A stretch of DNA of 64,000 nt from Escherichia phage Turkey3, in the sequence record PQ471515.1; one strand, 5' to 3'. Each line of letters begins with the position of its first letter. Position 1 is the stretch's first letter. The position numbers and the translations under genes were made by a program. This document shows positions 14,539-15,696 of the stretch, piece by piece. The notes under the pieces are model-generated. The model ran no database searches and was not told the origin of the DNA. It saw nothing but the letters and a program-made list of their open reading frames with translations.

Positions 14539-15696
14539 TTATGCGTTATAACCAACAATGACTACAGTACAGCCAAATGGTTCAACAACTTTTAATACAA
14601 CATTATCATCTGCATCGAGTTCAACTTCACTTAGAACAACATGATTGTCTTCAGCATAGACTTGAACTTGTGGGAGGATTTTACCATGTTCACTAGCAGG
14701 AATTGACAGTGTATACATGGAATCACCATCAACTGCCCAATCACTATCGGCATACGTATTGTGATATGGAGTGGTGTGTAAGGTTTTACCAATAATACTC
14801 AATGAGATTGGAGCGTCATCGGTTTGGTACACAGTGATATTACCGCTAGGATCTACAATGAGGTCTACTCCAATTTGGAATAAATCACCACTGTATGCTT
14901 GTAGAGCAAGATACTCACCACGCTCATGAACAGTAGCTGGTACAGTTGCCATATACATGCCATCGGGCGTGTACTCAAACTGCGATAGAAGTACTGAAGT
15001 AACGAAGTCAATATCTTCGCCGCTTTCTAGTATATCAAATTCAATAGTTTTGGTATTATATATGTCAGAAGTGAGGATGATGGTTCCTTTACCGGATTGA
15101 GTAATTGGATCAACTGGAATACTAAAAACATCATCAATTATTTCAGTTGTGAAGTACTCGGTTCCGTCAGGAAGTATAACGGTAATACGCATTCCAGTTG
15201 TATTAATGACTGAACCTGCGTTGAATAGGCGACCACCTACCAAATCATCACCTACGAACGTTGGGAACATAAGGATGTTGTCTATATCTCTATCTATAAT
15301 CCCGCATTCAGGGGTGTACATATTATATAGTGTTTGTGAACTACCTAGAATTGTTTTGTGCAAAAGAAACTTATAAACAAACCCAGTAGGATCTGATTCA
15401 AGTTTAGCATCTGAGTATCCTCTTACGAAAAAAGAGTTCTTTCTTATTTCACTTAGGATTTGGTCATTAGTTTTGTTGTAGTTTAATTGATATCCTTGTA
15501 TATCCTTTGTTGTAATTTGTACTTTACGATAAATTACATTACTTACAGGATCAAGTAAATCATATAATCTATGGCTTCTCTGACGATAGATTCGAACATT
15601 TTTGAGTTTAGTCCCATCGTTGAGAATTGCACCATCGACTACATAACCACATTCACCGAACTTATATCGTCCAGCAGCAGCAATCGATCTTGACAT
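14539..15696 (-). CDS. hypothetical protein (385 aa)
   Basis: Long minus-strand ORF; GGAGGG RBS; only minus-strand gene inside the + module. Confidence 0.75.
   Translation of the reverse strand: MSRSIAAAGRYKFGECGYVVDGAILNDGTKLKNVRIYRQRSHRLYDLLDPVSNVIYRKVQITTKDIQGYQLNYNKTNDQILSEIRKNSFFVRGYSDAKLESDPTGFVYKFLLHKTILGSSQTLYNMYTPECGIIDRDIDNILMFPTFVGDDLVGGRLFNAGSVINTTGMRITVILPDGTEYFTTEIIDDVFSIPVDPITQSGKGTIILTSDIYNTKTIEFDILESGEDIDFVTSVLLSQFEYTPDGMYMATVPATVHERGEYLALQAYSGDLFQIGVDLIVDPSGNITVYQTDDAPISLSIIGKTLHTTPYHNTYADSDWAVDGDSMYTLSIPASEHGKILPQVQVYAEDNHVVLSEVELDADDNVVLKVVEPFGCTVVIVGYNA

Follow-up and report, generated by a model that had tools for sequence, protein, structure and literature searches.

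A single gene facing against its surroundings was analyzed in a 64,000-nucleotide stretch of the genome of Escherichia phage Turkey3 (PQ471515.1; from here on, the window). The gene (14539-15696, minus strand, ATG start, stop codon at 14539-14541) codes for a protein of 385 amino acids. The product is probably a virion component of the 121Q/RaK2-like jumbo myophages, conserved yet dispensable and produced late from a small transcription unit that lies backwards within the early block. It would be held to the particle by a surface anchor, with immunoglobulin (Ig)-like domains directed outward that would act as a decoration similar to Hoc of phage T4 or as a weak adhesin. A previous reading of the same DNA (the original prediction) had presented the gene as the only one on the minus strand in the first 49 kb, bracketed by a bidirectional terminator and a divergent promoter region, and had taken it for an independently regulated insertion, i.e., a moron. 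Its coordinates and its description of the open reading frame (ORF), the terminator and the promoter region were accurate. In a strand survey of ORFs of at least 100 amino acids, the other minus-strand ORFs before position 49098 (16639-17115, 28193-28504 and 44230-44547) all fell within plus-strand genes, leaving 14539-15696 alone in its orientation. The homologue in phage vB_Ec-M-J, EcMJ_493, is the sole minus-strand feature among some 120 coding sequences and tRNA genes that precede the cluster of RCC1-like genes described below.

The window is 98.9% identical to the E. coli jumbo phages BF17 and vB_Ec-M-J. The region is 98–99% identical to the Escherichia jumbo phages BF17, vB_Ec-M-J, EC.P1, WPEC3/5, fEgEco12, Ecwhy_1, TH47 and CMSTMSU, and about 78% identical to 121Q, PBECO4 and phAPEC6 (genus Asteriusvirus). 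The window's relatives belong to the “Rak2-like” group, which are distant relatives of T4. A profile search, one of the checks proposed with the original prediction, gave a full-length match to PHROG 10468 (“virion structural protein”, E 5.6e-156, residues 1–384 of the 384 profile positions). By tblastn we found 60 phage records in which a copy spans 80% or more of the protein, at identities down to 40%, in phages of Escherichia, Salmonella, Erwinia, Yersinia, Cronobacter, Pectobacterium, Serratia and Xanthomonas and in one Klebsiella phage; phage phiKp24 is not a relative. No match to the protein was found in Pfam even at E ≤ 1, and the Protein Data Bank, searched with the sequence and with two profiles, returned noise only.

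The assignment to the virion comes from the orthologues. Those of 121Q (gp155), phAPEC6 (gp077), CBB (CBB_496) and GAP32 (GAP32_475) are full length, with 40–75% identity to the 385-amino-acid protein, and those of BF17, vB_Ec-M-J and fEgEco12 reach 98%. The 121Q gp155 group occupies the same locus, with the same reversed orientation and the same terminator and promoter layout, and no difference of substance was seen. Mass spectrometry of purified phAPEC6 virions identified gp077, which is 74.5% identical to our protein, by 10 unique peptides that cover 37.8% of it (PMC7247149, Table 1). In CBB virions, CBB_496 (40% identical) was represented by 4 peptides and a coverage of 17.5% (PMC5259590, Table 4), and the supplement of that paper marks it as detected in GAP32 too. 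Through these homologues in sister phages, the product of the gene is already on record as part of the particle. The published label of the orthologues is “structural protein” only, and the 121Q record adds the note “Ig-domain”.

Transcription signals around the gene

The 3′ end of the gene is marked by a bidirectional intrinsic terminator (14504-14537), shared with the convergent plus-strand gene 13679-14494. It is formed by the stem-loop GCCACTAC-AAT-GTAGTGGC (14513-14531), preceded by an A-run (14504-14512) and followed by a T-run (14532-14537). A U-tract follows the stem on both strands. The hairpin folds at −16.2 kcal/mol when read from the gene strand and at −20.9 from the opposite one, and a terminator scan listed it on the minus strand; the folds and the U-tracts bear out the bidirectional terminator first placed at 14513-14537. 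An equivalent hairpin, with an A-run before and a T-run after, was found 3′ of the gene in the ten relatives checked, with stems that vary by lineage (GCCACTAC, GCCTCC, GGCTCC, GGCTCCC and GGCACTC), and it is retained in phage RaK2 despite the missing gene (see below). Since the hairpin persists in relatives in which the stem sequence has changed, the comparison indicates that the terminator is conserved as a structure, not as a sequence, and is not a chance match.

The divergent promoter region at the other end (15697-15812, 116 bp) contains promoter motifs on both strands, as had been proposed. On the minus strand there is a Shine-Dalgarno sequence, GGAGGG (15701-15706), 4 nt before the ATG, at a position where a purine-rich block aligns in all relatives. 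A late-promoter-like motif, TAAATACATTATAAT (15719-15733, minus strand), lies 22 nt upstream of the ATG. The heptamer TAAATAC (TAAATAT in A4) was found 25–32 nt before the ATG in all eight aligned lineages, within upstream regions that are otherwise poorly conserved. The pattern TAAATAYWKTATAAT has six exact matches in the window vs. 0.04 expected, all on the minus strand and just upstream of minus-strand genes of virion type. The five matches other than that of the 385-amino-acid gene precede RCC1-like genes, in the layout of terminator hairpin, motif, AGGAG and ATG, and homologues of the RCC1-like genes are virion proteins in phAPEC6 (PMC7247149). In CBB, a T4-like late promoter (ATAAATA) was predicted before 35 structural genes (PMC5259590), and the list includes Porf_496, with the sequence ATAAATACTTTATA. 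A motif related to TATAAATA just upstream of the ATG, the trait of T4-type late genes, is therefore present here. The independent evidence for a late promoter consists of the match at the 385-amino-acid gene, its conservation across genera and the CBB list, and from the motif we infer that the gene is transcribed late from a promoter resembling those of T4 late genes. A gp55-like factor has been reported for CBB; its gene is located outside the window.

The plus strand of the same region carries a perfect sigma-70 consensus promoter, TTGACA-16-(TG)TATAAT (15690-15717), whose -35 box overlaps codons 1–2 of the minus-strand gene. A second, sigma-70-like promoter, TTGACT-17-TATACT (15757-15785, plus strand, matching the consensus at 10 of 12 positions), is located upstream of gene 15813-16397. 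Its TTGAC (GTCAA on the gene strand) is invariant in the eight aligned relatives, and its equivalent in RaK2 is TTGACA-17-TATAAT. Along the whole window, nine perfect TTGACA-N16-18-TATAAT sites were detected (at 3889, 4034, 8708, 15690, 23186, 23835, 28146, 39012 and 44577), all on the plus strand, vs. 0.2 expected. The authors of the CBB study described the syntenic region, CBB_390-546, as an early region rich in RpoD-like promoters. In three of the nine perfect promoters the spacer ends alike, with CAGTACTG ahead of TATAAT, a hint that the conserved element of the early promoters is longer.

Having a promoter motif and a terminator of its own, the gene is thus supported as a self-contained, separately regulated transcription unit that opposes a block with promoters of host type. 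In the mechanism that we propose, the host sigma-70 RNA polymerase would read the plus strand from the many perfect promoters, stop at the hairpin 14513-14537 and restart at 15690-15717 and/or 15757-15785, so that early transcription would never run antisense through the gene. Later, the T4-late-type promoter (TAAATAC, 15719-15733) would drive the minus-strand gene, and this late transcript would end at the same hairpin.

Domain architecture and proposed role

An AlphaFold2 model of the protein, built from 14 orthologues, was all-beta, with a mean predicted local distance difference test (pLDDT) of 81.7. This structure prediction, also among the checks first proposed, gave an N-terminal domain followed by three beta-sandwich domains. 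The N-terminal module (N-module; amino acids 1–128, 15313-15696), which is our proposed virion anchor, combines a conserved arm modeled at low confidence (amino acids 1–17) with a small beta domain. It is followed by the Ig-like beta-sandwich D2 (135–225, 15022-15294) and by the beta-sandwiches D3 (228–303, 14788-15015) and D4 (306–385, 14542-14781), all encoded on the minus strand. D4 was modeled with a pLDDT of about 85–95 and matched, in a profile search, many short stand-alone proteins of 80–160 amino acids. The predicted model therefore contains the tandem Ig-like domains expected of a Hoc-like decoration protein, and as a whole it matches extracellular adhesin folds. In the alignment of orthologues, the arm and the N-terminal domain keep 53–56% identity to the distant group vs. 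31–36% for the Ig-like domains.

Among 1.84 billion representative proteins, a profile search retrieved 171 relatives. The N-terminal ~123 residues recur at the extreme N-terminus of proteins of 112–1859 amino acids, in which the remainder consists of Ig arrays of the Big_2/invasin type; some members are the N-module alone (PHROG 33171), and those of 1859 amino acids come from metagenomes. Among isolated phages the N-module was found solely in this jumbo-phage group, at one to three places per genome. A Foldseek search of BFVD with the N-terminal domain retrieved only uncharacterised homologues of the same group and weak matches in Agrobacterium phage Atu_ph07. A capped, word-indexed protein search with the alignment of this domain gave a single match, and a search for related loci started from two individual proteins returned either nothing or matches confined to Ig domains.

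A second N-module locus adjoins a deoxycytidine monophosphate deaminase gene, again as a lone reversed gene, here amid metabolic genes. It codes for the N-module only in 121Q (gp471, 125 amino acids; L013, 5998-6375) and phAPEC6 (gp347, 125 amino acids), for a protein of about 215 amino acids in CBB (CBB_112, gp112; L014, 6001-6657) and RaK2 (gp039; L016, 4001-4639), and for two tandem Ig-bearing genes in Yersinia phage fHe-Yen9-04 (g094c/g095c; L017, 2922-4906). The N-modules of both loci are homologous (E 6e-15 and 5e-17). The proteins of the second locus share with ours this module, the reversed gene and presence in virions, and differ in genomic locus and in the C-terminal part: none, one Big_2 or several at the second locus, and three divergent beta-sandwiches invisible to Pfam in the 385-amino-acid protein. 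phAPEC6 gp347 was found in virions at 75.2% coverage, the highest value of the table (PMC7247149), and CBB_112 was also detected in virions and has a predicted late promoter (PMC5259590). Because phAPEC6 gp347 is N-module only, the N-module alone suffices for particle membership. With contents that range from a bare anchor to a tandem pair of Ig-bearing genes, the second locus behaves as a variable display cassette. In a Logan contig (SRR30543657; L019, 10001-13955), an N-module-only ORF of 112 amino acids shares 47 nt with an ORF of 1221 amino acids on the same strand; the longer ORF runs to the contig end, and the two may represent one giant protein of the family that is split or frameshifted.

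We read the N-module as an anchor because it is abundant by itself in phAPEC6 virions and elsewhere carries from zero to many Ig domains. Its task would be attachment to the surface of the particle; the Ig-like domains, which evolve faster, would face outward and serve as a decoration in the manner of Hoc or as a weak adhesin. T4 Hoc has tandem Ig-like domains and one particle-binding domain, is non-essential and is expressed late, so that the two proteins are alike in outline. However, the 385-amino-acid protein matched neither Hoc nor another solved decoration protein in sequence or fold, and its proposed anchor is at the N-terminus, whereas that of Hoc is at the C-terminus; the protein is not a member of the Hoc family. 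Hoc sits at the hexamer centre, where the capsids of 121Q and phAPEC6 have an unassigned protein. Cryo-electron microscopy of these two phages at ~10 Å resolved several densities with no assigned gene: an elongated decoration protein in one copy for each capsid protein, a protein that protrudes from every hexamer centre, and fibres on capsid and sheath; no high-resolution structure of any phage of this group was found in the literature. The two loci of the N-module family are reasonable candidates for these densities, and the lattice bound by the 385-amino-acid protein may be that of the capsid, at hexamer centres or between capsomers, or that of the tail sheath. A more tentative step, which we regard as possible but rather doubtful, is that the N-module is a new particle-binding fold and that its two loci supply the decoration densities of the T=28 capsids of 121Q and phAPEC6. 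If so, the anchor-only phAPEC6 gp347 would form the one-per-capsid-protein network, the 385-amino-acid protein would be the protruding element at the hexamer centre (or in the sheath rings), and the family would be a modular system of constant anchor and variable Ig display.

Several points weigh against a late, surface-exposed decoration. Mass spectrometry reports association with purified particles, and neither surface location nor copy number. The pattern TAAATAYWKTATAAT was derived from the window itself, and its RCC1-like copies were possibly duplicated together with their genes; no transcriptome was found in the literature for any phage of the group, and late timing and start sites are deduced from motifs. 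Pfam finds no Ig family in the protein, and calling its domains Ig-like depends on a structure predicted from 14 sequences. The N-module is without a structural relative of known function, and “anchor” is an argument from domain architecture. Lastly, paralogues are labelled “major tail protein” in some records, which leaves a tail location as open as a capsid one.

This last point bears on the strongest alternative, that the protein is a tail component (located on the sheath, the tube or the collar, e.g., as the base on which the rings of hair-like fibres stand) or a fibre protein for adsorption and host range. Besides “major tail protein”, N-module paralogues are labelled “possible surface protein responsible for cell interaction”, phAPEC6 and CBB carry tail fibres as well as an unassigned tail decoration protein, and Ig-like domains are frequent on tail proteins, as seen in PHROG matches. 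However, the “tail” labels stem from the Big_2 domain and are not based on a tail-tube fold, no tail-tube, sheath or fibre structure matches the model of the whole protein or that of the N-terminal domain, and RaK2 is a functional myophage without the gene. The protein was also considered for the 119-nm whiskers of CBB and rejected on size, since three Ig domains (~12–15 nm by our estimate) are too short. We regard a tail role as unlikely.

Very unlikely is a place inside the particle, either within the head (inner body) or among proteins that are ejected along with the DNA. The particles of this group do carry many non-surface proteins and an inner body, and the convergent neighbor 13679-14494, which lies on the early strand, codes for a virion protein. 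Against this, an anchor followed by tandem Ig-like domains that match extracellular adhesin folds, the extension of the family to very long Ig arrays, typical of exposed proteins, and the faster evolution of the C-terminal domains compared to the N-module, as expected of exposed parts, all point to the outside of the particle.

Conservation of the locus and its absence from RaK2

A lone reversed gene was found at the same place, and between the same two neighbors, in all the gene-bearing genomes inspected (11 of 11: 121Q, phAPEC6, UE-S1, A4, EJP2, fEgEco12, vB_Ec-M-J, GAP32, CBB, Erwinia phage Hallingskeid and Salmonella phage SE_PL). The neighbors are the convergent gene of a virion protein of about 270 amino acids (271 in the window) and a divergent gene of about 194 amino acids. 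GAP32 and CBB have one extra gene, a methyltransferase, between the 270-amino-acid gene and the reversed one. The base composition is ordinary, with a GC content of 0.355–0.393 for the gene vs. 0.33–0.39 for its flanks.

RaK2 (genus Alcyoneusvirus) is the exception. The gene is absent from the syntenic site, where both neighbors are directly adjacent, and no full-length homologue was found elsewhere in the RaK2 genome; a distant Vibrio jumbo phage is likewise without it. Nothing but the terminator hairpin AAAAGCCTCCC-TTCG-GGGAGGCTTTTTT and a promoter, TTGACA-17-TATAAT, occupies the RaK2 junction (L020, 3345-3485). The hairpin is flanked by an A-run and a T-run and abuts the promoter, i.e., a deletion, if there was one, took exactly the late transcription unit. 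In neighbor-joining trees of the two flanking genes, RaK2 came out as the sister of the Asteriusvirus clade, and the rooted tree of the 194-amino-acid protein nested it among the gene-bearing phages in 93% of bootstrap replicates, a placement that depends on two short genes and a distance method. Because RaK2 nests within gene-bearing phages, we infer with moderate confidence that an ancestral gene was secondarily lost in the RaK2 lineage and not gained elsewhere. Such a natural loss suggests, in turn, that the gene is dispensable.

The original prediction was partly supported. The independent regulation that it proposed stands, given the gene's own promoter motif and terminator. A moron, or a recent insertion, is not supported, in view of the synteny, the base composition and the virion homologues. 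A foreign accessory cassette with its own promoter and terminator and without a role in the particle would account for the reversed orientation, for the discrete indel between adjacent terminator and restart promoter in RaK2 and for the distant Vibrio phage without the gene, but is improbable in the extreme, since the gene occupies the same site across several genera at identities down to 40%, has the composition of its flanks (the test for a GC anomaly was negative), has virion proteins as homologues and a late motif in common with other virion genes, shows no patchy recent acquisition (RaK2 being nested among gene-bearing phages), and belongs to virulent phages, which the concept of a lysogen fitness gene does not fit. 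Lambdoid morons have the same compact unit of promoter, gene and terminator. They are, however, patchy among close relatives, often of odd base composition, and serve the lysogen, whereas this gene is ancient, ordinary in composition, preceded by a late motif and homologous to particle proteins. The original prediction had itself named conserved presence and orientation in all relatives, with a clear core function, as what would speak against a moron, and this is largely what was found. Presence and orientation are kept in the 11 genomes; RaK2 is the exception, and “virion protein” is not proven to be an essential core function.

A late virion gene wired in the manner of T4 accounts for the same arrangement. 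In T4, late genes face against early genes, and soc is an example of a lone late gene among early ones. The layout here shares with T4 a late motif resembling TATAAATA, a gene opposed to the early strand and insulation by a terminator, and differs in the motif, which here reads TAAATAC followed by TATAAT. By this analogy we would regard the arrangement as ordinary T4-style late-gene wiring, with no sign of foreign origin. A lone reversed gene in the early block of a jumbo phage, then, need not be an insertion.

The gene, its association with virions and its predicted late promoter are already published or annotated in sister phages. What is new is the four-domain map, the anchor shared with a second locus, the conserved layout of terminator and restart promoter and the likely loss in RaK2. 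Beyond a tidy annotation the significance is small, although the domain map, the second locus and the natural “knock-out” of RaK2 provide specific candidates for the unassigned decoration densities on capsid and tail of 121Q-like phages.

Neighboring features in the window

The minus-strand cluster at 49098-63964 consists of about 12 paralogous genes coding for beta-propellers of the RCC1-like/Kelch type, most of which begin with MLPF. Several of them are preceded by a repeat unit formed by a hairpin (CCAGTACT..GTACTGG and a T-run) followed by TAAATAYAKTATAAT, AGGAG and the ATG. Their homologues (“DNA condensation proteins”) are present in phAPEC6 virions. The minus-strand genes of about 375 amino acids at 49–64 kb were considered as paralogues of the 385-amino-acid gene and rejected, since neither blastp nor phmmer detected any relationship and they are RCC1-like/Kelch propellers.

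The convergent gene 13679-14494 (plus strand) codes for a protein of 271 amino acids whose homologues phAPEC6 gp078c and CBB_494 are virion proteins, with RaK2 ORF233 annotated likewise. No late motif was seen upstream of this gene, and its product may be made early and then packaged. The protein diverges fast, with 20–37% identity between genera vs. 60–70% for the 194-amino-acid neighbor. The latter, encoded by the divergent gene 15813-16397 (plus strand), is annotated as “putative endonuclease” in fEgEco12. It has a weak match to NOV_C and, by eye, a motif like D..E-x-K (ECDIKV...IEVKG). Its conservation extends over the entire phage group and as far as a Vibrio jumbo phage, at 33% identity.

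Finally, the region at about 41600-45700 has some 1.65 kb of extra DNA compared to vB_Ec-M-J (ORFs 41654-42952 and 43251-44666), and at the equivalent position vB_Ec-M-J carries HNH endonuclease genes. If the window has any real mobile insertion, this would be the place for it.

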